IMG/VR virus record: IMGVR_UViG_3300045988_082442
Location: 96,001 to 160,000 of that record
From: a virus
DNA: 64,000 bases
Direction: 5' to 3' (one strand)
The position numbers and the translations under genes are program-made. Shown here piece after piece: positions 3,630-49,243 of the stretch. Numbering within the stretch: the stretch's first letter is position 1; every line of letters begins with the position of its first letter. The notes beneath the pieces are model-generated. The model saw only the letters and a program-made list of their open reading frames with translations, was not told where the DNA came from and made no database searches.

Positions 3630-3797
3630 GTTTTATAGCTATGTAAAATGACACAGATGTGAAAGAATCCAACCCAATATAAAGTAGAACAAGGCGTTTT
3701 ATAGCTATGTAAAATGACACAGATGTGAAAGTTCTTTCTAATTTTAATGTCCTTATCATTAGTTTTATAGCTATGTAAAATGACACAGATGTGAAAG
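3630..3797 (+). CRISPR. mini-array 1: 3 repeats, 2 internal spacers of 30 nt
   Basis: Three identical copies of GTTTTATAGCTATGTAAAATGACACAGATGTGAAAG at 3630-3665, 3696-3731 and 3762-3797; spacers AATCCAACCCAATATAAAGTAGAACAAGGC and TTCTTTCTAATTTTAATGTCCTTATCATTA. Confidence 0.9.
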
Positions 3798-13822: not shown

Positions 13823-13868
13823 AGAGGAATTAGTATAAATAAATATATTGAGAAGAGGTAGGTATTAT

Positions 13869-16800: not shown

Positions 16801-17030
16801 TAAGAAGTCTATCAACAGAAAATGCAATAAATAAGAAATTTGGATTTACAGTAGATAGAATGGGTGTAGTACATCTTCAAGATACAGAAAAGAAAGAAAC
16901 AGATAAGCAAGAAGATATAAATGCAATAATAAGTGATGAAATGGAAAAATTAAAAGAACATAAGTCAACAGTAGAAACTGTAGACCCTAATAAATATTGG
17001 GGTAATAAAAGTGGAATGATTATAATATAG
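13869..17030 (+). CDS. terL: terminase large subunit, interrupted in frame by an intein
   Basis: Walker A GSTGTGKST, Walker B-like AAMDEMSF, nuclease-domain motifs HCDLSKSGD, SCDGYQS, GKDISDSLGGAVYNA; likely start ATG 13869 after AGAGGTAGG. Confidence 0.85.
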   Translation: MNEQLDLMTSLSMEELEAVKEILNEISTTGSSEMYDAINLADYEEIPVDLWTFLSRDDLLGKYTNGGKDIYQTWVNELKYVHNPANFVDQWAITGSTGTGKSTVATYSLCYELYKLMCLKNPNRFYLGANETIWFLFFNLNLKLAEKTMWGKFQKALQMSPWFLERGTVSGKTNLVYQPNKDIKLDIGSTEEHALSVAVQFAAMDEMSFGSNDNVEYLQTGMMAIYNQLYLRLSSRFLSAGRIQGRMYLISSAKSTNAVLESFIKDNEGQPGMHVSRYKQWEVLPASKFSGKWFKLAVGNELLESYIMGVDVSDEDVKNVEMQGYQVIDVPLEMMRRFEMDLNRTLIDTCGIAVQSSYKFIPYRIIEPCLGDGINPFKQEIIKTGMKDNMQIKDFFEPEIVPEILYSKKLYIHCDLSKSGDMTGISCVAVLGYKNQERYDAEGNLSTLKEMVFRHVFSIGLQCPANDELSMIKVKDFIHYLKYDLGWNIAGVSCDGYQSLMLLQSLRLDGFTTSEVSMDILKNKECVGYTSFRNALLEKRIYLLKLHELIREITNLEKNETTGKIDHPRQCLTGDTKVRMLDGTSKTMTDLLLDYQNNIPNYVYSFNETTHKIEPNLIKKVWQTRYEKCIYEITLDNDEIIRCTENHPFMLRDGQYIEAKNLKTDDALMPLYTKLAGKGGLKDYRIYYEPMEGRWHFEHTRFDPIRKLKRIKGNVTHHANYNKLDNRPINLKYITKAKHRWIHNRHPGKYENLKRSKTITEWHAQNKNSVEYKARNEKCRIGVINYYVNNPAIMNKKVSSFKNTISKLSTEELSKKFGKNKGRHWYTNGVNNMLLYPTDLVPDGYFKGKTQDGKWYTNGAKTILVKAADDIPDGFYAGRTLEYKNHKVKSIRVRYGYEKVYDLEVENNPNFALDAGVFVHNSTTINKETGEKVKSVGKDISDSLGGAVYNAILSVNLDELDYLDQKILTNDGQGNTYIRSLSTENAINKKFGFTVDRMGVVHLQDTEKKETDKQEDINAIISDEMEKLKEHKSTVETVDPNKYWGNKSGMIII
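15579..16631 (+). mobile_element. intein with HNH-type homing endonuclease insert (351 codons)
   Basis: HPRQ|CLTGDTKVRMLDG (block A, Cys1), ...YDLEVENNPNFALDAGVFVHN|S (block G, His-Asn plus Ser+1); internal THHANYNKLDNRPINLKYITKAKHRWIHN and two WYTNG repeats. Confidence 0.85.
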
Positions 17031-17719: not shown

Positions 17720-18193
17720 ATGTTAGTTAGAATGAGATTTGAAAACATAACTGAGGCAGAGCAGAATATGATTAGGGGGTTTTTAAATTGGTTGTGCAGT
17801 AAAATATTCATTTATCTAAACAGACCAGCAAATAGAAAAAGAATAGAAGCAAGACTAGATTATATTAAAAAAGTAAAATGGATAAACTGGGTAGGACCAA
17901 AAGATATTACTATTGATGACTTAATGAGTTCTATAAAGAAATGCTTTAAAATTAGAAAGAAGAAGGAACTTTGGGAAATATACTTTGATGATAGAGTTAT
18001 GATACCAAATACAAGGACACCTGTAACAAGATTTTTAAGATTTATGGATAGTGGGGATAATCTGGTAAAAGGAACAGGGATGATACAGTTTATCAAAAGA
18101 AAATTTACACATATACAGCTAAATAAATGGTGGGTTACTTATGTTATGTTAAAGACATCAGTTTACACATCAGGTAGAATAATATCAGATTAA
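17720..18193 (+). CDS. hypothetical protein
   Basis: 157-aa ORF; RBS GGAG upstream. Confidence 0.5.
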   Translation: MLVRMRFENITEAEQNMIRGFLNWLCSKIFIYLNRPANRKRIEARLDYIKKVKWINWVGPKDITIDDLMSSIKKCFKIRKKKELWEIYFDDRVMIPNTRTPVTRFLRFMDSGDNLVKGTGMIQFIKRKFTHIQLNKWWVTYVMLKTSVYTSGRIISD

Positions 18194-26512: not shown

Positions 26513-27177
26513 TGAATAATTTAAAGTTTGCACAGTCAATAATAGACTTATTTAATGATAATTGGAAGCATAGTGCCAAGGTAGTGAATAAGGATATGAA
26601 TTTTATGTTTATAAACAATCCTACAGCAAAGGTGGAACTAAAGGAAGGTACATATCTAAATATAAACTGTGGAGATTGGATAAAAAATTCAGTAAGATAT
26701 TTTGATACAAAGATAACTGATAGTAAATCATTCCAAGAAGGATTTGATAATCTATGTAAATCTGTAATAGGAAGAGATTTTAAAATGTTTAGAGATGATG
26801 GAGAAACACATAGAGATTGGTTAGAATCATTTATCAATGAACAACATGGTAGTGGTGTATCATCATTGTTCTGGTTATATTATAATATAAAGGCATCAGA
26901 TATAAAGAATATAGTTATTGATAATATAGATGGGTTTTTACATTTTCTATCAATGAGGCAATTAGGACATACACTAAGAGAATTTGGTAAAGATTACAAA
27001 TTTATATTTTTAATGAATGAGTATGTACTATTTACAACTAGCATATTCGATATAGAAGATTTATATGTACTACGTGGGGATAAAATATCAAATATACAGG
27101 ATTGCACAGATAAAAAACTAACATTAGCACATAATATGGAAGCAATATTAAGAGCGATAGATAATAATGTTTTATAA
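26503..27177 (+). CDS. hypothetical protein
   Basis: 224-aa ORF. Confidence 0.5.
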   Translation: MELVNNLKFAQSIIDLFNDNWKHSAKVVNKDMNFMFINNPTAKVELKEGTYLNINCGDWIKNSVRYFDTKITDSKSFQEGFDNLCKSVIGRDFKMFRDDGETHRDWLESFINEQHGSGVSSLFWLYYNIKASDIKNIVIDNIDGFLHFLSMRQLGHTLREFGKDYKFIFLMNEYVLFTTSIFDIEDLYVLRGDKISNIQDCTDKKLTLAHNMEAILRAIDNNVL

Positions 27178-27206
27178 TAAAATAAAGTTTAGAGGGGGGA
27201 TTTAAA

Positions 27207-27383
27207 ATGGCAAAGAAAGTTACTGAAATAAAATTAACAGCTGCATCTATCTATGATAAGTTTGCAGATTCAAATGGGTTTGTTAGCCTAAGTTGTATAG
27301 AAAAATTAGGTTGGACAAAAGCAAAAGCAGAGGAAGAAGGACTAGTTATAAAAGAAACATATAAGACTTGTGAAAGGATATAA
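27207..27383 (+). CDS. small hypothetical protein (below the ORF-track cutoff)
   Basis: Hand-translated MAKKVTEIKLTAASIYDKF...TYKTCERI, 58 aa; RBS GAGGGGGG upstream. Confidence 0.5.
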   Translation: MAKKVTEIKLTAASIYDKFADSNGFVSLSCIEKLGWTKAKAEEEGLVIKETYKTCERI

Positions 27384-27385
27384 TT

Positions 27386-27682
27386 ATGAATAATGTTATA
27401 GATATTTCAAAAGCTAAGAATTTAGTACATAAAAAATCAAAGGAAGATGTTGTTAAAGAAGAACCCATTGGTAGTAATCCAATAACACCAGAAGATTTAA
27501 GAGAAGAAATTGAGGATGCTTTTCTAATGGGAAAACAAGAAGCAATTTATCAAACTGTTGCAACATTTTTATCTACACCAGAAGCAATAAATAATCATAT
27601 AACTGGTGTAAGGATTGCAGTTGAGAATGGTTATGTGAATTGTTATTGGGAATTTAACGGAGGTAATACAGATGGAAAATGA
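27386..27682 (+). CDS. hypothetical protein
   Basis: 98-aa ORF. Confidence 0.5.
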   Translation: MNNVIDISKAKNLVHKKSKEDVVKEEPIGSNPITPEDLREEIEDAFLMGKQEAIYQTVATFLSTPEAINNHITGVRIAVENGYVNCYWEFNGGNTDGK

Positions 27683-27992
27683 TGAAGTAAAAGATAGCGG
27701 AATTATAGGATGTTCCGAATTAGAAAGTCTACAACTAGAAGTAGAAGAACTTAGAAAAGACAAAAAAGGTTTACAAGAAGAAGTAGACAGTCTTGAAGAT
27801 GATTTGACTTATACAAGAGAAGAATTAGAAGATGCTGAGAATAAATTAGAGAAACTAGAATGTTTACCAGAAGAAATAAAGTCTGATTTATTCAATAATA
27901 TTCAGTTAAGATTAAGACAAGATGGCTTAATGACATCAGAATTAGAAGACTGGTTTGAGTTATATGATAAATTTTATATAGATAAAGTATAG
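27672..27992 (+). CDS. coiled-coil hypothetical protein
   Basis: 106 aa, heptad-like LQLEVEELRKDKKGLQEEVDSLEDDL. Confidence 0.5.
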   Translation: MENDEVKDSGIIGCSELESLQLEVEELRKDKKGLQEEVDSLEDDLTYTREELEDAENKLEKLECLPEEIKSDLFNNIQLRLRQDGLMTSELEDWFELYDKFYIDKV

Positions 27993-27995
27993 GAG

Positions 27996-28535
27996 TTGTT
28001 TGATTTGAATACAAAGGTAATAAACTTATTTGGCAATCCAGGAAGTGGTAAATCAACAACAGCTTCCTATTTATTTTCTGAGATGAAAGCATTAGGGATA
28101 GAAGTAGAATTGGTCACAGAAGTAGCAAAAGATTTAGTATGGGATGAAGATTGGAAAAGATTAAATAATCAAGTTTATATATTTAGCACACAGCTACAGA
28201 GAATAGATAGATTAGTAGGTAAGGTAGAATATATAATAACGGATTCACCTTTATTATTACAAATAGGTTATTATAAGCAAAGAGGTTTACCAGCACCAAA
28301 GCATTTCAAGAAATTATGTATAGCATACAATAAAAGATATAATAACATAAATATATGGTTGAAGAGTAATAAAGAGTTATCACAGATAGGAAGAGCAGAA
28401 TTAGATTTGGACCCAATGAAATATCTATCTACTATGGAATTTGATTATAAGACAGATTGTAGACATAGAAAAGAGATTTTAGAGTACATATTAGGAGGAA
28501 ATCAAGATGAGAAAGATAAGATTAGGATGGGCTAG
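27996..28535 (+). CDS. P-loop NTPase (AAA_28/dNK-like)
   Basis: Walker A GNPGSGKST, Walker B-like EYIITDSP. Confidence 0.65.
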   Translation: MFDLNTKVINLFGNPGSGKSTTASYLFSEMKALGIEVELVTEVAKDLVWDEDWKRLNNQVYIFSTQLQRIDRLVGKVEYIITDSPLLLQIGYYKQRGLPAPKHFKKLCIAYNKRYNNINIWLKSNKELSQIGRAELDLDPMKYLSTMEFDYKTDCRHRKEILEYILGGNQDEKDKIRMG

Positions 28536-28890
28536 AACATCAGAAGGTGGATTTTATGGTGTTGATATACAAGGTGATGATGCAATATTATTATGTTGTA
28601 ACAAATCAATATATGACGATGTTTCTGGTGATGAAAAAGTATTAAATGTAGTAGATGCTGAAGATATATGTGATATATTGAAACCTGGGGACTATGTAAA
28701 TGGTTGCAGAGTAGATGAAATAAATGTTAATGCTTTTGGTGGAACTATTTACTGCAATAATTATAAAGTTGTAATTCAGCCATCAGATGTTAAACAAGTT
28801 GTAACAAGGGAAAAGTTTAGTCAACAGACATTTGAACTTGAAAGAGCTTATAATAGGGTGAAAGAATTAGAATCTGGAAATGATGACTAA
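28507..28890 (+). CDS. hypothetical protein
   Basis: 127 aa; ATG 28507 after AGGAGGA. Confidence 0.5.
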   Translation: MRKIRLGWARTSEGGFYGVDIQGDDAILLCCNKSIYDDVSGDEKVLNVVDAEDICDILKPGDYVNGCRVDEINVNAFGGTIYCNNYKVVIQPSDVKQVVTREKFSQQTFELERAYNRVKELESGNDD

Positions 28891-28941
28891 AGTGCAATTT
28901 TATATTTTAAAGTGCAAAAATTGCACTTTAAAAATTTATTC

Positions 28942-28978
28942 AAAAATGCTTGACATAATTTAAAACTTATAATATACT
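28942..28978 (+). promoter_or_regulatory. class-1 conserved phage promoter copy driving CRISPR array 2
   Basis: AAAAATGCTTGACATAATTTAAAACTTATAA then TATACT; no ORF between it and the leader/array. Confidence 0.7.
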
Positions 28979-29008
28979 TATATAAGTTAAAGAATTTATA
29001 ATAAATAT

Positions 29009-29058
29009 AGAGGTAATTTTACAACCTCTGCAGAAAACTGCGAACTGTGTATTTTGAT
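29009..29058 (+). ncRNA. CRISPR leader module L2
   Basis: AGAGGT-aattttaca-ACCTCT, GCAG-aaaa-CTGC, GAACTGTGTATTTTGAT. Confidence 0.7.
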
Positions 29059-29160
29059 GTTTTATAGCTATATAGAATGGCACAGGTGTAAAAGTATACC
29101 ATTTTGGGCTTTCCAAATCTTCCTGTTTTATAGCTATATAGAATGGCACAGGTGTAAAAG
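29059..29160 (+). CRISPR. mini-array 2: 2 repeats, 1 internal 30-nt spacer (plus a degenerate repeat remnant near 29191-29220)
   Basis: GTTTTATAGCTATATAGAATGGCACAGGTGTAAAAG at 29059-29094 and 29125-29160; spacer TATACCATTTTGGGCTTTCCAAATCTTCCT; downstream ...ACATAGAATGGAATAG resembles the repeat core. Confidence 0.85.
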
Positions 29161-29215
29161 AAATTAGTTTCATGAGTTGTAGATATTTGGAATAAAACAT
29201 AGAATGGAATAGATT

Positions 29216-29773
29216 ATGAGTGATTTTAAATTTATATTGTATTTAGATATGGATGGTGTAACAGCATCATCAAGTTATATAATAAAGATACATAATTACA
29301 TAATAAATAAGGAAGATGAAAATAAAGACTGGGAATATAGAAACTTTATGCAAAATTGGTGTTTTCAGAAGGAAGCAGTAGAATGCTTAAATTCTATATA
29401 TGATATAATACCATATAAAATAGTTCTATCAACTACAAGAAGATTTGAACTGGATATAAATGGATGGAACACAGTATTTAAGATAAATAAGATTAAAGCA
29501 AAAATAATAGGAAGAACATCTAAATGTGCATTTGATAAGAATAAATATACTTGGAGAGAAGATGAGATATATAAATATCATTATATAGACCATGACCTAA
29601 AGGACGTACCATTGATAATAATAGATGACGATAGCTTTGATTTACAGAAGTTTGAAGATAAACTAATAAAGGTAGATGGTACAGAAGGACTAACAATGAA
29701 ATACTATAAAGAAATATTAGATAAATTATATAAACAAGGTATTATGTATAAGGGGGATAGTAATGAGTATTGA
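29216..29773 (+). CDS. HAD-superfamily hydrolase-like protein
   Basis: Motif I LDMDGV, motif II LSTTRR, acidic IIIDDD. Confidence 0.5.
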   Translation: MSDFKFILYLDMDGVTASSSYIIKIHNYIINKEDENKDWEYRNFMQNWCFQKEAVECLNSIYDIIPYKIVLSTTRRFELDINGWNTVFKINKIKAKIIGRTSKCAFDKNKYTWREDEIYKYHYIDHDLKDVPLIIIDDDSFDLQKFEDKLIKVDGTEGLTMKYYKEILDKLYKQGIMYKGDSNEY

Positions 29774-30041
29774 ACAAAAAGTTAAAGAGTATATAGATAA
29801 CTGGAATTTAGGAGAATTGTCTGAAAGAGAACTTATAGATTTTATAAATTCATCTGAATCAGATTTATTTACTGGAAAAGATGTTGAGGATAATGACATA
29901 TCTATAATTATAAATAAAGGTGTAAACATAGAGTATAGAACATATCAGTCAAATGGCTGGATAAGAATAAATAGATATGAATTAGCAGAAGATGATGAGG
30001 GAAATACTATAATTGTCGAATCAGAGTCTTATGATAAATAA
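29763..30041 (+). CDS. hypothetical protein
   Basis: 92-aa ORF. Confidence 0.5.
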   Translation: MSIEQKVKEYIDNWNLGELSERELIDFINSSESDLFTGKDVEDNDISIIINKGVNIEYRTYQSNGWIRINRYELAEDDEGNTIIVESESYDK

Positions 30042-30048
30042 TAAATAT

Positions 30049-30099
30049 AAGGGTAGTTTTACAATCCTTGCAAGAAATTGTGAACTGTGATATTTTGAT
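30049..30099 (+). ncRNA. CRISPR leader module L3
   Basis: AAGGGT-agttttaca-ATCCTT, GCAA-gaaa-TTGT, GAACTGTGATATTTTGAT. Confidence 0.7.
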
Positions 30100-30325
30100 G
30101 TTTTATAGCTATATAAAATGACACAGATGTGAAAGACACAATTGTTTAAATCTTTTAAAATTTGATGTTTTAGAGCTGTATAAAATAACACAGGTGTGAA
30201 AGGAACGATGTAACTTCTAACAATGAAAAGAGGTTTTAGAGCTGTATAAAATAACACAGGTGTGAAAGGCATTAGTTACTGTGTGTTTTGTTTTAGAGCT
30301 GTATAAAATAACACAAGCGTGAAAG
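30100..30325 (+). CRISPR. mini-array 3: 4 repeats of two subtypes; spacers 31, 30 and 21 nt (degenerate terminal repeat near 30353-30388)
   Basis: R1 GTTTTATAGCTATATAAAATGACACAGATGTGAAAG (30100); R2-R3 GTTTTAGAGCTGTATAAAATAACACAGGTGTGAAAG (30167, 30233); R4 differs only in its tail, ...ACACAAGCGTGAAAG (30290). Confidence 0.85.
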
Positions 30326-30390
30326 TATTTTGAAGATAGTGATGATGTTTTTTGTTTTATAAATATACAAAATATAATAAAATAATTTAA

Positions 30391-30427
30391 TAAAATACTT
30401 GACAAAATTTAAAACTTATTATAGAAT
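30391..30427 (+). promoter_or_regulatory. class-1 conserved phage promoter copy
   Basis: TAAAATACTTGACAAAATTTAAAACTTATTA then TAGAAT. Confidence 0.65.
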
Positions 30428-30455
30428 AGATACAGTTAAAAGAAGGAGGTGCTTT

Positions 30456-32003
30456 ATGGAAGATAGAGATAGAACAGAGCATGTATTCAAGAGTATAAAA
30501 TATCATTTGAATAAACTAAAAGACGCAAGACCAGAATATGAATTTTTAATGATAGCAGCACAGGGTAGTCAGAACTATAATTTAGATTTATATACAGAAG
30601 AATATAAATCAGATGTAGATACAGTAGCAATAGTATTACCCCCAGTAGAAGATATTATAAATAATGCACCATTTGTTAGTGAGACAATAATCTTAGGAAA
30701 TAATGAACATATAGATGTAAAAGATTTAAGACAAATAATAGAGTTATTTAAGAAACAGAATATTAAATACTTAGAGATATTATTTACTAAATTTAGAATA
30801 ATCAATAGTAAATATAAAGATGAAGTACTAGAGTTATTGAATAATGCTGATAATATAGCTAAATTAAACCCAAAGAAATTAGTAACTAGCTCATTTGGAA
30901 TGCAGTTAGAAAAGCATAAAGCATTAGAACATCCTTATGAGGGATTAAAAGAGAAAATATCTAAATATGGGTATGATGGAAAGCAATTACACCATATAAT
31001 AAGACTAACACATTTTGTAAATAGGTATATTAAAGACTTAGATTTTAGAAATGCAATGAACTTTGAAGATATAGATGATAATATATATAATGATTTAATA
31101 AAAGCTAAGTTAAATAAATATAGTTTAGATATGGCAAGAAGTGAGGCATTAACACAGACACAAAGATTAATGAACATAAAAGATGAGTTTGTATTATCTT
31201 ATAAAGACCTAGATACATCTAATACATTAGAGTTTCTAAGTACAATAAAGAATAAAATATTTAATAAATATCTTGAATACAAATTTACACCAGAAGATAA
31301 GATAGAAAAACCTATACTAATACCATCAGCAGATAGAATATTTGTAACATCTGATTTACATTTTGGGCATTCAAATATATTAAAATATGAACCTAAAAGA
31401 TGGGAACTAACAGGTACAACTGAATTAAAAGCAATAAGTGAAACATTAATAGATGAAGGATTTACAAATGAAGAAATATCTAATATGCCAGATGATTTAT
31501 GGGATAAATATAGAAATATAACCTGTAATAAATATATGGAAAAACATGATAAAGAACTTATTAGAAGATGGAATGAGAGAGTAAAAGAAGATGACCTTGT
31601 ATTTATATTAGGTGATTTATCTTTCAGAACTGGTACAGAAACAAATAAAATATTAAAACAGTTAAAAGGTAGAAAGGTATTGATAAAAGGTAATCATGAG
31701 AATATCTGGATGAATAAGAATGCTGACCTATCATTATTTGAAGAAATAGTCGATTATAAAGAGATAAAGGTAGATAAATGTATGTTTTGCATGTCACATT
31801 ATCCATTTAGAGTATGGAACCAACAGCATAATGGCTCAATACAATTATTTGGACATATACATAGTAATGAAACAACAAGCCATCCAATGAAAGAAGAAAT
31901 ACCTTATTCATATAATGTAGGTGTAGATGTAAATAATTATTATCCAGTAAGTCTAAAAGACTATGTAGTGACATCTAACTACTGTAATGAATTAGAGATA
32001 TAA
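30456..32003 (+). CDS. fusion protein: RlaP-like nucleotidyltransferase plus metallophosphoesterase
   Basis: ATG 30456 after AAGGAGG; N-terminal AAQGSQNYNLDL...SDVDT (PF10127-like); C-terminal SDLHFGH, LGDLS, GNHE, GHIH. Confidence 0.6.
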   Translation: MEDRDRTEHVFKSIKYHLNKLKDARPEYEFLMIAAQGSQNYNLDLYTEEYKSDVDTVAIVLPPVEDIINNAPFVSETIILGNNEHIDVKDLRQIIELFKKQNIKYLEILFTKFRIINSKYKDEVLELLNNADNIAKLNPKKLVTSSFGMQLEKHKALEHPYEGLKEKISKYGYDGKQLHHIIRLTHFVNRYIKDLDFRNAMNFEDIDDNIYNDLIKAKLNKYSLDMARSEALTQTQRLMNIKDEFVLSYKDLDTSNTLEFLSTIKNKIFNKYLEYKFTPEDKIEKPILIPSADRIFVTSDLHFGHSNILKYEPKRWELTGTTELKAISETLIDEGFTNEEISNMPDDLWDKYRNITCNKYMEKHDKELIRRWNERVKEDDLVFILGDLSFRTGTETNKILKQLKGRKVLIKGNHENIWMNKNADLSLFEEIVDYKEIKVDKCMFCMSHYPFRVWNQQHNGSIQLFGHIHSNETTSHPMKEEIPYSYNVGVDVNNYYPVSLKDYVVTSNYCNELEI

Positions 32004-32073
32004 AAATGTTCAGTAAGATGTTAATAAGAATGTAAGTAAGTTTTCTGGTATCTTGATAAAAACCAGAATATAT

Positions 32074-32146
32074 CTCCTTATGGTGTAATAGGCAAACACG
32101 CTACTGAGTGGTGGTAGAATTATAGGTTCGAGCCCTGTTGGGGAGG
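32074..32146 (+). ncRNA. tRNA-like element A (non-canonical anticodon loop, no encoded CCA)
   Basis: Acceptor CTCCTTA/TGGGGAG, D arm GTGT/ACAC, T arm ATAGG-TTCGAGC-CCTGT are good; anticodon stem CTACT/GGTAG closes the loop GAGTGGT, which lacks U33. Confidence 0.5.
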
Positions 32147-32180
32147 ATAAATTCTATATATAGAATAATGTGTTACGCAG

Positions 32181-32266
32181 TATCTGTATTATAAGGTGAC
32201 AAGTACACAGGACGCTGTGGAGGGTTTCAATTCCTGGTAGTTGATTAGGTCTACAAAATACAGATA
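32181..32266 (+). ncRNA. unassigned structured element B (10-bp closing stem)
   Basis: TATCTGTATT (32181-90) pairs with AATACAGATA (32257-66); internal hairpins CACAG-gacg-CTGTG and GTAG...CTAC; not foldable by eye as a tRNA. Confidence 0.35.
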
Positions 32267-32272
32267 TAATAT

Positions 32273-32344
32273 CAGGTGGTAGTTGATAGGAAAACACTTC
32301 TACTAATGTATGAAGAGATGCTGGTTCGAATCCAGCCCTCCTGA
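32273..32344 (+). ncRNA. tRNA-like element C (acceptor/T-arm minihelix intact, D and anticodon arms degenerate)
   Basis: Acceptor CAGGTGG/CCTCCTG (one U-U), T arm GCTGG-TTCGAAT-CCAGC; no convincing 5-bp anticodon stem or 7-nt loop. Confidence 0.45.
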
Positions 32345-32357
32345 CCTTTTCAAAAAT

Positions 32358-32443
32358 GCAAGTATATCTCAACGGCAGAGCAGCCTCCAGTTGGGGGTGA
32401 AAAGTAGCATACGATTGTGTAGGTTCGAATCCTACTACTTGCA
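32358..32443 (+). ncRNA. tRNA-like element D (long variable region, non-canonical anticodon arm, no CCA)
   Basis: Perfect acceptor GCAAGTA/TACTTGC, T arm GTAGG-TTCGAAT-CCTAC, D arm CTC-aacggca-GAG; the central region does not give a standard anticodon arm. Confidence 0.5.
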
Positions 32444-32446
32444 ACC

Positions 32447-32489
32447 TAAAAATGACACAGATGTAAAAGAATATATTCATAGGTTATAT
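32447..32489 (+). CRISPR. solitary crRNA-like unit: repeat 3' handle (23 nt) plus a 20-nt guide, flanked by tRNA-like D and tRNA-Trp
   Basis: TAAAAATGACACAGATGTAAAAG (32447-32469) matches the 3' part of the array repeats; followed by AATATATTCATAGGTTATAT, ending one base before tRNA-Trp position 1. Confidence 0.65.
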
Positions 32490-32564
32490 AGGAGCTTGGT
32501 GTCAATGGTAGCACGACAGTCTCCAAAACTGTGAGTGAGAGTTCAAATCTTTCAGCTCCTGCCA
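32490..32564 (+). tRNA. tRNA-Trp (anticodon CCA), CCA encoded
   Basis: Acceptor AGGAGCT/AGCTCCT, D arm GTGT/GCAC, anticodon arm ACAGT-CTCCAAA-ACTGT, T arm GAGAG-TTCAAAT-CTTTC, G73, CCA. Confidence 0.85.
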
Positions 32565-32778
32565 ACATATCAATAATTCTAAATAAAATAAAAATAATCA
32601 GATTGGGTTTGGTACACCTGTAAGTTTGGGTATAGATATGGTCCTAAAAGGTCAGTCTTGATTATGCACAGAGATGTGCTGGCGAACGGTGAATTATTGA
32701 TATAAACAGATTGGATTATAACCTCTATAAGTTCAAGATAGAATGGGCTTGAAATACAATCTGTCAGTAATTTAATAT

Positions 32779-32864
32779 GGGTAGTTGGGTGAGTGGCTAA
32801 AACCATCAGACTGTAAATCTGACCTCATTTGAGTTCCCTAGTTCGAATCTAGGACTACCCACCA
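32779..32864 (+). tRNA. tRNA-Tyr (anticodon GTA), long variable arm, CCA encoded
   Basis: Acceptor GGGTAGT/ACTACCC, anticodon arm TCAGA-CTGTAAA-TCTGA, variable arm CCTCATTTGAGTTC, T arm CCTAG-TTCGAAT-CTAGG, A73, CCA. Confidence 0.85.
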
Positions 32865-32868
32865 GTAA

Positions 32869-32918
32869 AAGGGCAATTTTACAGCCCTTGCAGGAAACTG
32901 TGAACTGTGTATTCTGAT
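32869..32918 (+). ncRNA. CRISPR leader module L4
   Basis: AAGGGC-aattttaca-GCCCTT, GCAG-gaaa-CTGT, GAACTGTGTATTCTGAT; begins 5 nt after the tRNA-Tyr CCA. Confidence 0.7.
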
Positions 32919-32919
32919 A

Positions 32920-33144
32920 TTTTTATAGCTATATGAAATAATACAGGTGTAAAAGTGTTCTAACTGTTTTAGAGTATAATCGTTTGTTTTACAGATATAT
33001 GAAATAACACAGGTGTAAAAGCTAGACTGTAAATCTGGTCTCATTTGAGTTACTTTGTAGTTATATGAAATAGCACAGATGTAAAATTGGATAATATGTT
33101 CTGAATTGTTTTATAGCTATACAGAAATGACATGGATGTAAGAG
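32920..33144 (+). CRISPR. mini-array 4: 4 diverged repeats; spacers 30, 30 and 20 nt; directly upstream of the effector gene
   Basis: R1 TTTTTATAGCTATATGAAATAATACAGGTGTAAAAG (32920), R2 GTTTTACAGATATATGAAATAACACAGGTGTAAAAG (32986), R3 ACTTTGTAGTTATATGAAATAGCACAGATGTAAAAT (33052), R4 GTTTTATAGCTATACAGAAATGACATGGATGTAAGAG (33108). Confidence 0.8.
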
Positions 33145-33201
33145 TTACGGCTAGGTATAGACATCAATAGTGATAAATAATTTATTTGGGGGTTAAAAAA
33201 A

Positions 33202-35007
33202 ATGAAAAGAAAAGAGTTAAACGAAGGAGTTCACTGTGTAGAATATGCTTTAATGCACATACCAGATGAATATAAGGAATTGTTAGAAAGACAATATAAT
33301 TATATGGAAGATTTCAAGAATGGCTTTATTAGTTATATGTGGAGATATATTTCAAAGCAACGAAAGGAAAACGAAGAATTTGATAAAGCCATGGCTGAAG
33401 TTAGATACTTAAATACAAAGGAAGGAAGAATTATAAAGAAGGATGAACGCTCTAATAGACTAAGTAAAGCATATACAACAATAGGTAATTTTGTAAAAGA
33501 AACAAAGTTATTAGATTCTGGAAGTAGACGAAAAGAATACTACAGTACAGTAAAAAATGTTTATTATGCTTGGATACCAGATGATAGTAGGTCTTATGCA
33601 ATAGATGATGTTTTATCAGCATTTGAAGTATTCTTCTTTGATAGGGGTAAAGCAGTATTCCAAAAGAAATATGGTCATACAAAAATATTACAATTTAAAC
33701 CAGCATACAGTAGAATGAAGAGTACTGGTGAAATCAATACAATAGTACAAACACCTAGCAGAGTTGTATTTGAAAATGGAAATCCTTATTTTGAAATGTG
33801 GGATTTAAGAGATTTAAAAGATATACCAGAAGAAGAATGTCAAAAAGGTAAAAGACATAGTAAGATAAGATTTAGAATGTATTGTAATGATAAAGATGAG
33901 TTACAAAGTTATATAAAAACAAACCCATACATAGGTGGAACTAAGTTATTAAGATACTGGAAGAAGGGAAAATGGAGATATAGAGTTCAATTAAACTTTG
34001 AAGCAATATCACCAGCAGTAAAACAAATGAGCAACGAAGAGCATATAATGGGAATAGACTTAGGTACAGAAACAATAGCTTGGGTAAGAGATGATGGAGA
34101 ACAAGCAATATGGGAGTTATCACCAGATACACCAAGGGTAACAGAAGAAATAAAGGAAATAGATGTATATTTAGATAATTCAAGAAGGGCTATGAATCCA
34201 GAATTATTTAGGGAAGATGGTACTAGAATAAGTAATAGGGAAGCTAGGGAATTAGGATTAGAAGAAAAGCATTCAAAAAGATATATAAAAGCAGCAGCAA
34301 GAAGAAAAGAATGTTTTAGATATTTAGGAGAAAAAAGAAAACTAAATAACAGAATCCTAGCTAAAAAGTTATTTGAATTAGGTAATGAGTTTCATATAGA
34401 AAATAATAAGGTTTCATCTTGGATGTTAAAAAGATGTCACATGGCTCTTAAAACAGCAATGAAATATGCTTCTGGAGCAAGAGCAAGTGATTATGGGAAA
34501 GTTGTAGCAGATAGAGCCCCAGGAATGATAGATGCAAGATTATCTCAATTAGCAGGACAAAAAGGACTTTCATACCATAAAATTGAGAAGATAGAAGGTT
34601 TTAAATGCACAGAATATAATCATTTTACGGATAAGAATGATTTATTCCAATATCTAAATGACAGAATTGTAGTATTAGATGTTGACAGTGTAAATGATGT
34701 CTATAAAGAGTTTATTACTGATTTTGGTGATACAATTACTGATTTAAAAATAGACGGAAAAGACATAATACTACAAAGAGATTTATATGCAGCAGCAAAA
34801 TTAGTTTATTGCACACCATATAAAGAAACTATTGTGAATAGTAAAGGTAGAAAGGTAGAAGTAACAAGATATAAATTTGATAGAGAAGGGTTTAGCAAAT
34901 TCTTTGTTGAGAAATTTTATCCAAAACATTTAGAGTATATAATGAATCTAAGGGCTGAGTTAGCTAATGGTAAGAAGCTAAGTGGTACTGTATTTGGTAA
35001 TATTTAA
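33202..35007 (+). CDS. compact TnpB/Cas12-like RuvC nuclease (putative type V-like single effector, 601 aa)
   Basis: RuvC-I HIMGIDLGTETIAW (D286), RuvC-II GNEFHIENNKVSSWM (E400), RuvC-III DIILQRDLYAAAKL (D527); TnpB-like order of basic helices between motifs; no CxxC zinc finger in the lid/Nuc region; flanked by array 4 and a solo leader. Confidence 0.75.
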   Translation: MKRKELNEGVHCVEYALMHIPDEYKELLERQYNYMEDFKNGFISYMWRYISKQRKENEEFDKAMAEVRYLNTKEGRIIKKDERSNRLSKAYTTIGNFVKETKLLDSGSRRKEYYSTVKNVYYAWIPDDSRSYAIDDVLSAFEVFFFDRGKAVFQKKYGHTKILQFKPAYSRMKSTGEINTIVQTPSRVVFENGNPYFEMWDLRDLKDIPEEECQKGKRHSKIRFRMYCNDKDELQSYIKTNPYIGGTKLLRYWKKGKWRYRVQLNFEAISPAVKQMSNEEHIMGIDLGTETIAWVRDDGEQAIWELSPDTPRVTEEIKEIDVYLDNSRRAMNPELFREDGTRISNREARELGLEEKHSKRYIKAAARRKECFRYLGEKRKLNNRILAKKLFELGNEFHIENNKVSSWMLKRCHMALKTAMKYASGARASDYGKVVADRAPGMIDARLSQLAGQKGLSYHKIEKIEGFKCTEYNHFTDKNDLFQYLNDRIVVLDVDSVNDVYKEFITDFGDTITDLKIDGKDIILQRDLYAAAKLVYCTPYKETIVNSKGRKVEVTRYKFDREGFSKFFVEKFYPKHLEYIMNLRAELANGKKLSGTVFGNI

Positions 35008-35017
35008 TATAAATTAT

Positions 35018-35089
35018 AGGGTAATTTTACAGCCCTTGCAGGAAACTGCAAATAAAATATCATTTTAAAGCTCTATGATATTGTAAAAG
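35018..35089 (+). ncRNA. solo leader module L5 plus truncated degenerate repeat
   Basis: AGGGT-aattttaca-GCCCT, GCAG-gaaa-CTGC, then ATTTTAAAGCTCTATGATATTGTAAAAG (35062-35089), which resembles the repeat ends. Confidence 0.6.
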
Positions 35090-35124
35090 AAACTGATTTA
35101 AAAATCAGTTTGTATATTCTTTTT
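35090..35124 (+). terminator. intrinsic terminator
   Basis: AAACTGATTT-aa-AAATCAGTTT followed by GTATATTCTTTTT. Confidence 0.65.
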
Positions 35125-35192: not shown

Positions 35193-35228
35193 TAAAGACA
35201 TCCTATATACAAAGAAATATTCTAATTT

Positions 35229-35252
35229 AAAGGCAGAGAAATCTGCCTTTTT
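35229..35252 (+). terminator. intrinsic terminator
   Basis: AAAGGCAGA-gaaa-TCTGCCTTT continuing into TTTTT. Confidence 0.8.
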
Positions 35253-35261
35253 AATTTATTA

Positions 35262-35298
35262 AAAAATGCTTGACAAAATTTAAAACTTATACTATACT
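35262..35298 (+). promoter_or_regulatory. class-1 conserved phage promoter copy
   Basis: AAAAATGCTTGACAAAATTTAAAACTTATAC then TATACT. Confidence 0.7.
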
Positions 35299-35338
35299 TA
35301 TTATAATAAGATGTTAATATATAGGAGGGGTGATTATA

Positions 35339-36743: not shown

Positions 36744-37916
36744 GTGAATTTATTAGATAGTGTAGAAATTCAGAAATTAGAAGAGGATATAAAAAGATAT
36801 GCAAAAGCGTACTACGAGGGAAAAGCTCAAATCTCTGACTATGAGTTCGACAAACTTACAGATAGATTAAGAGATTTAAAACCAGACTCAACTGTATTAA
36901 GAACACCGGGATGGGGATATGAACAAACTGGTACAAAAGTAAAACATAAATATCAAATAGTTAAAAGTTTGGATAAGTGCAGAACATTTGATGAAATTCC
37001 AGAAAGATTTACAAATAAATCAGTAGCATTATCACCAAAACTAGATGGTCTTACAGGTGTATTCTATTATAAAAATGGTAGACTTATAAAAGCAATAACA
37101 AGAGGAAATGGAACAGAAGGCAAGGATATTACAGATAAAGCAAGACTAATAGTAGGTAATGAAATATTAGATAAGAACTTTACAGGTGGTGTTAGAGGTG
37201 AACTTGAAATTTCTAATACTAACTGGGAAATAATAAAGAGCAAATACCCAGAAGCTAAGAATGCAAGGAACTTATGTGCAGGTTGGATAAATTCAAAAGA
37301 CTATAATCCAGATGAAATAAAAATGATAGATTTTATTACTTATAAGGTAACTGGACAAGAAAGAGAAGAAGGAAAAGAAGATATATTTTATGATTTATCA
37401 AAAGTAGATAATATTGGTGAGATATGCTTTAATAGCAATCCAACTAAGTTTAATGTTATAGACTGGCTATCATATAACTTTAAAAATACAATACCAAAGG
37501 TACAAGCAACATTAACAAGAGATGGGTTTCAAGAATTTATGCAAAAGGTATTTACTGAATTTAAAACAAGTGATAGATATAATTTAGATTACGAACTAGA
37601 TGGTATTGTTATATCTGATATAGATGTAATATATCATAGAGCAGAAAATTCATATATTTATGATGAGTGTGCCTTTAAATTTGCAGCTGAATCTGCTGAG
37701 GCTAAGGTTACAGGAATTACTTGGAATATGACAAGAACACAAAGATTAGTTCCCATTGTTCAGTTTGAACCTGTATTTTTATCTGGTGCTGTTTTACAAA
37801 ATGCTACTGGACACAATGCAAAGTTTATATTAGATAATGAAATAAAAATTGGTTCTACTATTGAGATTTGCAGAAGTAATGAAGTAATTCCTTATATAAA
37901 GAAGGTAGTTGATTAA
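36744..37916 (+). CDS. ligA: NAD-dependent DNA ligase, N-terminal fragment (Ia, adenylation, OB domains)
   Basis: YYEGKAQISDYEFDKL (Ia), motif I SPKLDGLTGV, later ELDGIVI, OB end SNEVIPYIKKV; stops exactly before the expected Zn finger. Confidence 0.8.
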   Translation: MNLLDSVEIQKLEEDIKRYAKAYYEGKAQISDYEFDKLTDRLRDLKPDSTVLRTPGWGYEQTGTKVKHKYQIVKSLDKCRTFDEIPERFTNKSVALSPKLDGLTGVFYYKNGRLIKAITRGNGTEGKDITDKARLIVGNEILDKNFTGGVRGELEISNTNWEIIKSKYPEAKNARNLCAGWINSKDYNPDEIKMIDFITYKVTGQEREEGKEDIFYDLSKVDNIGEICFNSNPTKFNVIDWLSYNFKNTIPKVQATLTRDGFQEFMQKVFTEFKTSDRYNLDYELDGIVISDIDVIYHRAENSYIYDECAFKFAAESAEAKVTGITWNMTRTQRLVPIVQFEPVFLSGAVLQNATGHNAKFILDNEIKIGSTIEICRSNEVIPYIKKVVD

Positions 37917-37917
37917 T

Positions 37918-38679
37918 ATGTATGGTTATATCTATTTAGTGCATGACAGTCTAAATAATAGACATTATATAGGACAACACAAATGGACAAAGTATGAATT
38001 ATTAGACGAAGATTACACAAGAGGGTCTGAAAAAGCATTTAGAGATTCCCATGGATTTGATTTATTTAAGATAGACCCAAATTATTTAGGTTCAGGAAAA
38101 CATTTACAAAATGCAATTAAAAAATATGGTAAGAATTATTTTTATATACAAGATATACTTGATATTGCAGAAACAAAACAGGAGTTGAATAAAAAAGAGA
38201 AAGAATGTATTAGACATTATAAATATGTATTAGGTTATAATCTATACAATATTAGTGAGGGTGGTGATGGAGGATATACTGGTAAAGATATTAGTGGTAA
38301 GAATAACCCAATGTATGGAAAACATCATACAGAAGAAACTAAACAGAAATTAAGAGAAATTATGAAATCTAAGGATTTTGAATATTTTAAAACAGACCCT
38401 AGATTTAGACATTATGGCAAAGATAATGGAATGTATGGTAAAAATCATACTGAAGAATCAAAGGAGAGAAACAGGAAAAAACATTTAGGAAAGAAAGTAT
38501 CTGATGAAACAAGAAATAAAATGAGAAAATCACATAACCCAAATAATATGCCCCCAAATCTACAAGGATATAGAGGAATGAATAATGGAATAATATATAC
38601 AAAAATACCACCAGATAAAATAGATAAATACTTGAGTGATGGTTGGAAGTTTGGAAGAATTAAAAAGGAGGATAAATAA
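37918..38679 (+). mobile_element. free-standing GIY-YIG homing endonuclease gene splitting ligA
   Basis: MYGYIYLVHD...HYIGQ, YNISEGG, NUMOD3-like GKNNPMYGKHHTEETKQKL and GKDNGMYGKNHTEESKERN. Confidence 0.85.
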
Positions 38680-39566
38680 TGAATAGATGTGTAAATTTAG
38701 AAGAGAGTGAATATTTACCTACACAATGCCCAGCCTGTGGACATAATTTGGAGTGGGTTGGTGTTGATTTAAAATGTGTAAACACAGAATGTCCACATAT
38801 AGCAGAGAGTGATTTGGAACAGTGGTGTACTATTGTAGGAGAAACAGATGGGTTAGCATGGGTAACAATGAAGCAATATTTAGATAAATTCAATATACAT
38901 AATACAGATGATTTATATAAGAATATAAATACAATGATAGCTACATTACAAGGTGGTAATGCTTCTATAACAGATAAAAAGATTGTAGAGTTTCTAAATA
39001 AGTTATATAAAGATATGATACCAGTAGAAAAAGCATTGATGGGATTAAATATACCAAGATTAAGTGAACAGACAGCAAAATTATTAAATAAAGAGAAAGA
39101 GTTAGTACATGATTTAATGACAATAGGTTCTCAATATACTACTGTAAAGGATAGAGATATGATTTCTATTCCAGATACATTAAAGAATAAACTATTAGGA
39201 TTAGTTAAAGAAGCAACAACAGAATCTATATTAAGTAATTTAGGAAAGTTGAACACACTACATTATTTATATGAACAAGATACACCTAGAATTATATTCA
39301 ATGACAATACTGATGAAATTATAAAGGTTGCTGTTACTGGCTCATTAGAGAGTATGAAAAGAAGTGCTTTTGAGAAGTATATACAAAGTTATGGATATGA
39401 ATTATCTAGTAGTATTAAATCTTGTAAATATTTAATAACTAATAATCCGAACAGTGGTTCAAGCAAGAATAAAGATGCCCAAAAATATGGTGTTGAAATC
39501 ATAACTGAAAAAGAATTTTTAGATAAATTAGGTAAGGTAACTACTAAATCTAATACATTGTTTTAA
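38679..39566 (+). CDS. ligA: NAD-dependent DNA ligase, C-terminal fragment (Zn finger, HhH, BRCT)
   Basis: CPACGHNLEW...CVNTECPH, then a helical region, then BRCT-like VAVTGSLESMKR...YLITNNPNSGSSKNKDAQKYGVEIITEKEF. Confidence 0.8.
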   Translation: MNRCVNLEESEYLPTQCPACGHNLEWVGVDLKCVNTECPHIAESDLEQWCTIVGETDGLAWVTMKQYLDKFNIHNTDDLYKNINTMIATLQGGNASITDKKIVEFLNKLYKDMIPVEKALMGLNIPRLSEQTAKLLNKEKELVHDLMTIGSQYTTVKDRDMISIPDTLKNKLLGLVKEATTESILSNLGKLNTLHYLYEQDTPRIIFNDNTDEIIKVAVTGSLESMKRSAFEKYIQSYGYELSSSIKSCKYLITNNPNSGSSKNKDAQKYGVEIITEKEFLDKLGKVTTKSNTLF

Positions 39567-42432: not shown

Positions 42433-42494
42433 TGTGAATACATCTAACAGTACATATTTGTTAGATGTATATTTTATATATAGGAGGATTTAAT

Positions 42495-43289
42495 ATGGGA
42501 ATAGATTATAAAACAATAAGTCATGAATTACCAGACAATTTATTATGGCTGGAAGATAGAACAATATTACTAACAAAGGCAGGTTCATACATATATGGGA
42601 CAAACATAGAAACATCAGATACAGACTATAAAGGTGTTTGTATCCCACCAAAAGAATATTATTTAGGTTTAAAATCAATAAATGAATATAATAAATCTGG
42701 TGGTAAAAACTTTGGTGAAAGAAATACCAAAGATGATATAGATATAGTTGTATGTCATATAAATAAGTTTGTAAGAGATGCTATGAATGGTATTCCAAAT
42801 AATTTAGATATACTATTTTGTAGAGATGAGGATGTAATTTATATGGATGATTTTGGTAAGGAGTTAAGAGATTTTAGACATGAGTTCTTATCAAAAGAAG
42901 TATTCAAAAAGTTCTCAGGTTACGCTTTATCACAAAAACATAAAATAGAGACTAAAAAGAATCATGGAACTGGAAGAAGAGAATTAGTAGAAGAATTTGG
43001 GTATGACTGTAAATTTGCTTATCATGCTGTAAGACTAATATTAGGTGCAACAGAAATATTAGAAACACATGATTATCATTCATATAGACCAGAAAGGGAA
43101 TGGTTAGTAGAAATAAGAAAAGGTAAATATACACTAGAAGAAATATTTGATATAATAGAAGATTTAGATGCAAAACTAAAAAGTGCTTATGAAACAAGTA
43201 CATTAAGAGAAAAACCAGATTATCATAAAATAAATAAATGGCTAATAGGTTTAAATGAAAGAGCATTGAATTATGACTTTAAAAGGTAG
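42495..43289 (+). CDS. RlaP-like nucleotidyltransferase (PF10127-type)
   Basis: ATG 42495 after AGGAGG; KAGSYIYGTNIETSDTDYKGVCIPP... Confidence 0.6.
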   Translation: MGIDYKTISHELPDNLLWLEDRTILLTKAGSYIYGTNIETSDTDYKGVCIPPKEYYLGLKSINEYNKSGGKNFGERNTKDDIDIVVCHINKFVRDAMNGIPNNLDILFCRDEDVIYMDDFGKELRDFRHEFLSKEVFKKFSGYALSQKHKIETKKNHGTGRRELVEEFGYDCKFAYHAVRLILGATEILETHDYHSYRPEREWLVEIRKGKYTLEEIFDIIEDLDAKLKSAYETSTLREKPDYHKINKWLIGLNERALNYDFKR

Positions 43290-45276: not shown

Positions 45277-45309
45277 AAGGGTAATTTTATAACCCTTGCA
45301 GGAAACTGC
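45277..45309 (+). ncRNA. solo leader module L6 (no intact repeat follows)
   Basis: AAGGGT-aattttata-ACCCTT, GCAG-gaaa-CTGC; then GAACTATTTTTAATAGATATAAAAGC, only a faint repeat remnant. Confidence 0.6.
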
Positions 45310-45390
45310 GAACTATTTTTAATAGATATAAAAGCTTTTTTCGATACCCCAATTTATAAGATAAATAAAACAGAATAGAGGTAGGAAGTT

Positions 45391-49193: not shown

Positions 49194-49243
49194 AAGGATA
49201 ATTTTACAATCCTTACAGGAAACTGTGAACTGTGTAATTTAAT
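49194..49243 (+). ncRNA. CRISPR leader module L7
   Basis: AAGGAT-aattttaca-ATCCTT, ACAG-gaaa-CTGT (compensatory relative to GCAG/CTGC), GAACTGTGTAATTTAAT. Confidence 0.7.

Follow-up and report, generated by a model that had tools for sequence, protein, structure and literature searches.

A promoter-led guide-RNA cassette and a Cas12/TnpB-like nuclease that probably form a self-contained RNA-guided DNA-targeting system in a large low-GC phage

[quoted passage not shown] The tracrRNAs of these systems are 100–200 nucleotides (nt) long (bioRxiv 10.64898/2026.03.27.714800). Cas12p is phage-borne, has no known host and has a reported protospacer-adjacent motif (PAM) of GTN (bioRxiv 10.1101/2025.01.20.633832). 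The TranC nucleases (transposon-CRISPR intermediates) are described as TnpB-derived, with short CRISPR arrays of 32–38-nt repeats (median of about five repeats) and an omegaRNA functionally split into tracrRNA and CRISPR RNA (crRNA); some occur in phages (Jin et al., Cell 2025, as cited in PMC13565253 and bioRxiv 10.64898/2026.03.27.714800). Virus-borne mini-arrays and viral single-guide RNAs have also been described, and these either rely on a host's Cas machinery or work against it (PMC11656645; bioRxiv 10.64898/2026.06.01.729453). Here we analyzed a 64,000-nt stretch of viral DNA (IMG/VR record IMGVR_UViG_3300045988_082442, positions 96,001 to 160,000; hereafter the window, in which position 1 is the first nucleotide), which contains five CRISPR mini-arrays, each headed by a short RNA module, and a gene for a 601-aa Cas12/TnpB-like nuclease. 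Our starting point was mini-array 2 (28942–29220). We consider it probable that this promoter-led guide cassette and the phage-encoded effector constitute a self-contained RNA-guided DNA-targeting system directed against another element.

The locus has the general design of the compact type V systems, but its effector shares only about 10% identity with Cas12f and Cas12p and has no sequence-profile match to either in the PDB. It also has no cysteine zinc ribbon, the scaffold is only about 50 nt long, and, instead of coming from one separate tracrRNA gene, it is joined in cis to the leading repeat in each of several arrays spread over more than 45 kb. The features of TranC (TnpB-lineage nuclease, CRISPR array and split guide) fit, and membership in one of its clades is conceivable; the window differs in that scaffold-repeat-guide RNAs, single-guide-like units and a scaffold-free crRNA-like unit share one genome and are interleaved with tRNA genes. 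Like the omegaRNA (reRNA) of TnpB, one module lies within a few nt of the nuclease stop codon, and the scaffold is pseudoknotted with the guide at its 3′ end, whereas no transposon ends or TnpA were seen, CRISPR repeats and spacers occupy the guide position, and the N-terminal half of the effector is enlarged (601 aa against about 400). The short arrays, the single-guide-like RNAs and the spacers against other mobile elements are shared with virus-borne mini-arrays and viral single guides, but in the present case the phage itself encodes the nuclease, and 185,579 GTDB species-representative bacterial and archaeal genomes yielded no host counterpart. We found no description of a short cis-fused scaffold on dispersed arrays, of fused and split guides together, or of guide units at tRNA junctions, in a literature search that was incomplete.

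The initial annotation had placed a class-1 promoter, with TTGACA at 28950 and a −10-like TATACT at 28973–28978, ahead of array 2 and had observed that no open reading frame (ORF) follows it. Hexamer scoring of the interval 27500–31000 gave this pair (−35 at 28950–28955, 17-nt gap) an 11/12 match to the consensus, which was the joint top score, level with a promoter at 30399. Promoter-like matches are common in this AT-rich DNA (29 were seen in the interval and 25 expected, i.e., no enrichment), and hence the hexamers alone prove little. The site is credible because it is part of a conserved 44-nt element, AAAAATGCTTGACAnAATTTAAAACTTATAA, which has 11 copies in the window, the one at 28938–28981 (+ strand) among them, and which we annotate as a sigma-70-type promoter. 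A scan of the whole window for the pattern TTGACA-N17-TAnnnT returned 12 sites on the + strand and none on the − strand. At 11 of the 12, a start codon with a Shine-Dalgarno sequence lay no more than 130 nt downstream, the sole exception being the copy at 28950. Both the promoter and the missing ORF were thus borne out, and transcription would start near 28985.

Upstream, a terminator-like hairpin with a 13-bp stem (28905–28933, + strand) closes an operon whose last ORF ends at 28890; it is the only terminator-like site in 27500–31000, and the same hairpin-then-promoter layout recurs at 35216–35301 (promoter at 35270). Downstream, no terminator was predicted from 28978 to the next promoter at 30399, so that the transcript should continue through two protein genes and into mini-array 3. 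The first of these genes (29216–29773, + strand) encodes the HAD domain of 'Swiss Army Knife' RNA repair proteins (HAD_SAK_2; PF18143, E 1.6e-17; phrog_1818) and the second is a 92-aa ORF. Mini-array 3 (30049–30325, + strand), a scaffold module with four repeats, begins 8 nt past the stop codon of the 92-aa ORF and, since no terminator intervenes, is probably carried on the same transcript. Array 2 had been credited with its own promoter. This is right in that the promoter directly precedes the array, but judging from the sequence it is probably shared with the two genes and array 3 rather than being array 2's alone, and array 2 is probably better read as the first cistron of a small operon.

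Two identical 36-nt repeats, GTTTTATAGCTATATAGAATGGCACAGGTGTAAAAG, lie 66 nt apart in array 2, at 29059–29094 and 29125–29160 on the + strand, and enclose a unique 30-nt spacer, TATACCATTTTGGGCTTTCCAAATCTTCCT, at 29095–29124, which is the organization of a CRISPR array. In total, 18 repeats of this family are distributed over the five arrays of the window. The second repeat is followed by a 25-nt spacer-like segment (29161–29185, + strand), for which no target was found, and by a putative decayed third repeat (29186–29221, + strand) that overlaps the start codon at 29216. Its core, ACATAGAATGGAATAG (29197–29212), matches the repeat core at 13 of 16 positions and is situated just 5′ of the ATG, 5 nt short of the expected register. 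About 1.5 matches of this type are expected per window and five were seen outside the arrays, but one in this register would arise by chance with a probability of about 1e-3. Over its full length the third repeat matches at only 18 of 36 positions, which is not distinctive. The decayed distal repeat that had been noted before thus appears to be real but weak, standing by its core and not by its full length. Two ORFs over the array, a 37-aa frame with a TTG start on the + strand and a 77-aa frame on the − strand, were rejected as artefacts; the latter holds the peptide FTPVPFYIAIK twice, once per repeat.

The segment at 29009, together with the repeats at 29059 and 29125, had been located correctly by the initial annotation, in which it was called a leader module. 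The position holds, but its structure is that of a tracrRNA-like scaffold rather than of a plain leader. To describe it we parsed 28 non-redundant units, seven from the window and the rest from seven related loci (eight distinct phage contigs). Each unit consists of a 6-bp stem (H1) with a 9-nt loop, AATTTTACA, a 4-bp stem (H2) with a tetraloop, an anti-repeat of 10–13 nt and a contact between the H1 loop and the repeat tail. In array 2, all on the + strand, H1 (29009–29029) has the arms AGAGGT/ACCTCT, which carry two compensatory swaps relative to the sibling modules; H2 (29030–29041) is GCAG-AAAA-CTGC; and the anti-repeat ACTGTGTATTTT (29044–29055) is complementary to the repeat centre AGAATGGCACAG, forming the strongest such duplex in the window (−10.4 kcal/mol). 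In a 47-column alignment of the units, H1 was paired in 98% of cells with both sides varying at five of six positions, and H2 in 100% of cells with both sides varying at three of four. The H2 loops of the other units are GAAA, GAAG, GAGA, GCAA and similar GNRA-like tetraloops.

The anti-repeat follows the repeat across variants. Its partners are CTGTGTAATTT with AAAT(G)ACACAG in the window, ATATGTAATTT with AAATTACATA in the related contigs L001 and L007, and TGTGTTAAAT with ATTTAACACA in L008; for 22 units the cognate duplexes averaged −8.3 kcal/mol, against −6.3 kcal/mol for permuted partners, and none of 5000 permutations reached the cognate value. The second contact joins the H1 loop to the last 7 nt of the repeat preceding its final G. 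In array 2 the loop sequence TTTTACA (29017–29023) is perfectly complementary to the repeat tail TGTAAAA. Over all units this pairing averaged 6.15 of 7 positions, which none of 10000 permutations of cognate partners attained. Loop and tail change together: TTTTAC pairs with GTAAAA in the window, TTTTAG with CTAAAA in L001 and L008, TTTTAT with ATAAAA in L007 and at 45277 in the window, and TTTCA with TGAAA in L011 and L009. At the variable loop position of the pseudoknot the pairs were CG in 10 units, GC in five, UA in five and UG in three. Taken over the whole alignment, 94.8% of cells were paired (81.1% in shuffles), the covariation score was 0.499 (0.215 in shuffles, none of 500 reaching 0.499), and sliding the partners by one to three columns reduced the pairing to 35–52%.

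The two repeat contacts jointly span the 3′ 21 nt of the repeat, the segment that precedes each spacer, and both covary with it across repeat variants, in keeping with the repeat complementarity of a tracrRNA anti-repeat. A tracrRNA in the strict sense is a separate transcript, whereas in all five arrays of the window the module is contiguous with the first repeat. Action of the scaffold in trans is suggested only by array-less modules at 35017 and 45277 and by a scaffold-free crRNA-like unit at 32447–32489. A type II reading had been prompted by the repeat start GTTTTAGAGCT, by the 36/30 spacing and by the presence of an anti-repeat; it was abandoned since Cas9 was not among the PADLOC and Pfam families listed for the window. 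L001 (7819–7890) has three tandem copies of the anti-repeat TATGTAATTT, which separate the module from its first repeat.

The likely partner of the scaffold and array RNA is the 601-aa protein encoded at 33202–35007 on the + strand, just 3′ of mini-array 4. Its sequence matches were weak but consistent: PHROG 506 ("transposase", 3e-11), NCBIfam guided_TnpB (0.003) and, in PADLOC, Cas12f (E 4.1e-7, over part of the protein) and Cas12u3 (6e-6). No match was obtained to the Pfam family Cas12f1-like_TNB, and Pfam and PDB sequence searches with the protein alone or with an eight-sequence profile returned nothing. The RuvC triad is intact, with D286, E400 and D527 in the motifs GIDLGT, HIENN and QRDLY, and R526 and D527 are invariant in 44 sequences. 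An AlphaFold2 model built from the 44-sequence alignment had a mean predicted local distance difference test score (pLDDT) of 88 and a predicted template modelling score (pTM) of 0.83; it superseded an earlier model from eight sequences, which had a pLDDT of 65 and low Foldseek template modelling scores (TM-scores). In Foldseek searches the model matched only Cas12, TnpB and Fanzor families, at about 10% identity. Target-normalised TM-scores were 0.61 for AsCas12f, 0.48–0.50 for Cas12m2, 0.49 for Cas12p, 0.59–0.63 for ISDra2 TnpB and 0.50 for LaTranC (all five with probability 1.0), and Fanzor2 was also matched; a viral structure library yielded TnpB-like proteins only. The effector profile matched LaTranC at E 1.8e-4. 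An exhaustive profile search recovered about 14 full-length close clusters and, after a gap, TnpB-like proteins of about 500 aa from E 1e-32. Relatedness to Cas12p was not found, as phmmer and two profiles missed the PDB Cas12p entries (9jfs, 9jg3) at E ≤ 10, and the likeness lies in the fold only (TM-score 0.44–0.49). By its sequence, the effector would thus not be a Cas12p, nor can it be assigned to Cas12f.

The spacer of array 2 has a perfect 30/30 match in a metagenomic contig of 132 kb and 25% GC (ERZ827512.105 NODE-105; L014). The protospacer is not flanked by repeats and lies inside a 512-aa ORF that adjoins an AgrC-like kinase gene; this ORF has no match in phage or plasmid collections, and its 54 homologues are unnamed. 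Since the contig and the window have no genes in common, targeting of a close relative by array 2 is unsupported. The spacer points instead at a gene in an unrelated low-GC element, so that the likely task of the system would be the attack or exclusion of a competing mobile or host-resident element. On the spacer-sense strand the 5′ flank of the protospacer reads ...TTCCA, ending in CCA and not in GTN, although a single protospacer cannot define a PAM. For the 13 spacers of the window and two guide-like segments, blastn against GenBank phages gave no match, and IMG/VR contained no exact match to the array-2 spacer (whole or in part), the second spacer-like segment, a spacer shared with L011 or a tRNA-flanked 20-mer. 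Three further 20-nt seed matches in metagenomes (L013, L015 and L016) extended to only 23–24 of 30 nt and were treated as chance.

Some other spacers resemble sequences in this phage or its relatives. Spacer 2 of array 4 (33022–33051) matches the anticodon-arm region of the phage's own tRNA-Tyr (32806–32835) at 26 of 28 positions in the same sense, and the 5′ flank of this near-match also ends in CCA; the corresponding matches to the tRNA-Tyr genes of relatives are 26/28 in L011, 24/27 in L001 and 23/26 in L008. This spacer may target the tRNA-Tyr gene of a rival phage while mismatching its own. The first 23 nt of spacer 3 of array 5 (49413–49442) recur in the first spacer of an array in L011 (1592–1614), which suggests that some spacers were inherited across the lineage rather than recently acquired. 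The first 16 nt of spacer 2 of array 1 (3732–3747) match the window exactly at 17946–17961 (− strand), inside the ORF 17720–18193, a self-match that could be due to chance (chance estimate roughly 0.01–0.2).

We propose the following mechanism. A host-type sigma-70 promoter would fire near 28985 and open a + strand transcription unit, whose first product would be a guide-RNA cassette comprising a structured scaffold of about 50 nt in cis with a two-repeat mini-array; the RNA-repair gene, the small ORF and mini-array 3 would follow by read-through. By pairing with the 3′ 21 nt of the repeat, the H1 loop and the anti-repeat would build a pseudoknotted handle that immediately precedes the spacer on its 5′ side. 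The 601-aa effector would bind this handle, use the 3′ spacer to find DNA and cut the DNA of the target element.

Several observations weigh against this proposal. A close homologue of the effector (P0005) has N at the RuvC-I aspartate, and the effector contains no CxxC pairs, the cysteine zinc ribbon that is usual in TnpB and Cas12f being absent. The scaffold is far shorter than known compact type V tracrRNAs, and extra RNA elements have perhaps been missed. The H2 loop of array 2 (AAAA) is the only one among the 28 units that does not begin with G, which could mean mild decay. A target was identified for only one spacer of the window, on an unannotated contig in which the target ORF has only a weak Rep-like match (E 0.006), and the start site and the read-through are predictions from the DNA sequence. 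Finally, Cas1, Cas2 and Cas4 were not among the PADLOC and Pfam families listed for the 61 ORFs of the window; any match missing from the PADLOC listing would be no stronger than E 4e-7. An adaptation module is optional in type V systems and is often missing from those borne by mobile elements.

Among the alternatives, the one that survives best is that the promoter serves the downstream protein genes, and that the module and array are a passenger in the 5′ untranslated region or a cis-regulator, e.g., an mRNA leader bound by the effector. In its favour, the array and the gene at 29216 have no predicted terminator between them, and a module immediately precedes the ribosome-binding site (RBS) of the Pnkp/ligase gene (45277), as one does the effector gene itself in L003 and L012. 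However, both repeats of array 2 are intact and its spacer has a genuine target outside the phage, and in relatives perfect promoters immediately precede arrays behind which no gene lies (L008, 4652–5250). We therefore regard this alternative as unlikely to be the whole explanation, although a regulatory role of this kind may coexist with DNA targeting by the phage effector.

The effector and the arrays recur together in at least seven distinct related phage contigs (from the set L001, of 195 kb; L003; L007; L008, an IMG/VR viral contig; and L009–L012). Several mini-arrays, built of 36-nt repeats with 30-nt spacers and led by a module in each case, flank the effector gene in these relatives. 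Repeats were located in the window and in L001, L003, L007 and L008, and modules or arrays flank the gene in L009–L012. At every locus that reaches past the effector stop codon, a module starts within a few nt of it, as seen in the window (35017), L001, L003, L007, L008, L011 and L012. Neither an effector homologue nor the window-type repeat was present in the 185,579 GTDB genomes. Viral mini-arrays, such as those described for archaeal viruses, are usually read as host-dependent (review PMC11656645), and by analogy the repeats here could copy a host array, with the module as a mere leader and a host Cas system borrowed against related viruses. The arrays are indeed short, adaptation genes are missing from the families listed, and spacer 2 of array 4 resembles the tRNA-Tyr genes of related phages. 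Such dependence is nevertheless very unlikely, given that the repeat is absent from the reference genomes, that the window and every related locus encode a Cas12-like effector next to the arrays, and that the module covaries with the repeat, unlike a plain leader.

No more probable is an RNA decoy or anti-CRISPR function, in which the units would imitate the guide RNA of a host and thereby tie up or divert its Cas nuclease, in the manner of Racr RNAs or of the recently described viral single-guide RNAs against Cas9. Phage single-guide-like RNAs that subvert Cas9 exist (bioRxiv 10.64898/2026.06.01.729453), the compact units at 35017 and 45277 resemble single guides, and the repeat start GTTTTAGAGCT would also suit a type II-A repeat. 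On the other hand, there was no Cas9 among the PADLOC and Pfam families listed for the 61 window ORFs and no host array with this repeat was found, the cognate nuclease is encoded by the phage, and the perfect 30-nt external target of the array-2 spacer would be needless for a pure decoy. As to the wider distribution of these sequences, megablast of 27000–33000 against GenBank phages gave no match, an Rfam search returned tRNAs only, and a scan of IMG/VR with the module pattern found nothing, the single IMG/VR relative having a different H2 sequence.

That the arrays are transcribed from left to right is supported by several independent features. Plausible ORFs of at least 90 aa and all five tRNAs in the window are on the + strand only. 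In two relatives, a promoter with a 12/12 consensus match and a TG extension lies shortly before H1 (L007, 3030–3058, with H1 starting 25 nt on at 3083; L008, 4652–4680, with H1 starting 18 nt on at 4698). Module pairs read on the + strand include 38 G-U but only three A-C combinations in the 28 units, with one H1 position being G-U in 19 units, and nhmmer placed the module matches on the + strand in every case. Repeat identity drops rightwards in the long arrays of the relatives (in L008: 36, 36, 36, 36, 34, 33, 29 and 30 of 36), and in L001, L003 and L008 as well as in the window, modules start 2–4 nt past the 3′ end of a tRNA. In the Cas12/TnpB class, to which the associated effector belongs, the guide is always 3′ of the scaffold. 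The initial annotation had derived the same polarity from the promoter, the decay of the distal repeat and the uniform gene orientation. The polarity and the uniform orientation are upheld by the evidence above, but the promoter alone would not fix the direction, which is settled by the structural and comparative evidence, and the decayed repeat is the weakest of the three arguments. It follows from left-to-right transcription, as had also been stated, that the repeat 3′ end lies 5′ of each spacer in the RNA. Although the − strand repeat ends in a 7-bp hairpin plus one base (TTTTATA-TAGC-TATAAAA), which would stand beside the spacer at the repeat 3′ end as in Cas12a-type crRNAs, the opposite polarity is barely credible, because phage-type promoters number zero on the − strand, every plausible gene and tRNA is on the + strand, the 38 G-U pairs would become A-C mismatches and the tetraloops UUUC, the module would fall downstream of the array, and it is the right-hand repeats that decay. 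The direction in which the five arrays are read matters because it decides which repeat end is the handle, and which strand and flank are to be inspected for targets and PAMs.

The remaining arrays of the window, all on the + strand, are mini-array 1 (3580–3797; module and three repeats), mini-array 4 (32869–33152; module and three to four decaying repeats), which begins 4 nt past tRNA-Tyr and has the effector gene closely downstream, and mini-array 5 (49194–49610; module and six repeats). Three further units depart from this plan. An array-less module (35017–35115, + strand) begins 9 nt past the effector stop codon and consists of the module, a short anti-repeat hairpin, the tail GTAAAAG and a terminator-like hairpin with a T-run; this copy has apparently lost its array. 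A compact single-guide-like unit (45277–45364, + strand) has a 58-nt scaffold (module, 5-bp anti-repeat hairpin and tail ATAAAAG), in which the loop TTTTATA is perfectly complementary to the tail TATAAAA, followed by unique sequence. The third is a solitary crRNA-like unit (32447–32489, + strand) composed of the repeat 3′ 21 nt, AAAATGACACAGATGTAAAAG, and 20 nt, AATATATTCATAGGTTATAT, for which no target was found. It exactly fills the gap between an odd tRNA (32357–32446) and tRNA-Trp (from 32490). These units suggest that the mature handle is about 21 nt long, that tRNA-processing enzymes define some of the RNA ends, and that the scaffold can act in trans. In L008 (1646–1886), tRNA-Cys is followed after 2 nt by a 63-nt scaffold, a 24-nt guide and, without a gap, tRNA-Phe, and in L001 a stretch of 27 nt separates an array's last repeat from tRNA-Thr (2797). 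The 'guide' position of the unit at 45277 coincides with the 5′ leader of a Pnkp/phosphatase/RNA-ligase fusion gene (45391–47859); together with modules just before the effector RBS in L003 (about 9937) and L012 (about 462), it may indicate regulation.

More tentatively, and as a possibility that we would not yet favour, the lineage may preserve a TnpB-to-Cas12 transition in progress, with an omegaRNA-like scaffold of about 50 nt that has stayed attached to the first repeat in all mini-arrays, fully fused single-guide-like units whose scaffolds measure 58–63 nt, and a scaffold-free crRNA-like unit, several of them excised by tRNA enzymes. Such processing is considered because units sit exactly between tRNA genes, from where they could be cut out of polycistronic transcripts by tRNA-processing enzymes. 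If this were true, the phage would provide a natural counterpart of engineered tRNA-gRNA (guide RNA) arrays, a single genome that has guides in both the unsplit and the split state, and scaffolds among the smallest of natural Cas12-type guides. The unusual traits of the locus, namely a very short cis-fused tracrRNA-like scaffold, guides dispersed in an RNA-repair and tRNA region, and guides bounded by tRNA genes, bear on the origin of type V CRISPR from TnpB via guide-RNA splitting, on conflicts among mobile elements, and on efforts to find compact nucleases for genome editing that work with short guides.

The surrounding DNA is phage-like, with genes for an endolysin, a holin, a tail protein and many RNA-repair enzymes, in a large, low-GC phage genome. 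The RNA-repair and tRNA toolkit around the arrays (29216–32003, 42465–43289 and 45391–47859) includes HAD_SAK_2, a nucleotidyltransferase-phosphoesterase fusion, an RlaP-like nucleotidyltransferase and a Pnkp/Rnl fusion; Thg1 and YqeY are also encoded within the window, and relatives carry transfer-messenger RNA genes and 18–19 tRNAs. Two tRNA calls in the window were odd, a 90-nt tRNA with undetermined anticodon at 32357–32446 and a tRNA-Ile(AAT) at 32273–32346. A 1060-aa ORF (13848–17030) contains an intein (Intein_splicing, E 2e-22) and HNH-endonuclease-like segments, and PADLOC reported two homing-endonuclease-like ORFs in the window. The NAD-dependent DNA ligase gene is apparently split (36744–37916 and 38679–39566), being interrupted by a 256-aa ORF (37909–38679) that is maybe a mobile insertion. 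Upstream of mini-array 1, two non-coding direct repeats of 137 nt, 151 nt apart and with 77% identity, are located at 3034–3321.

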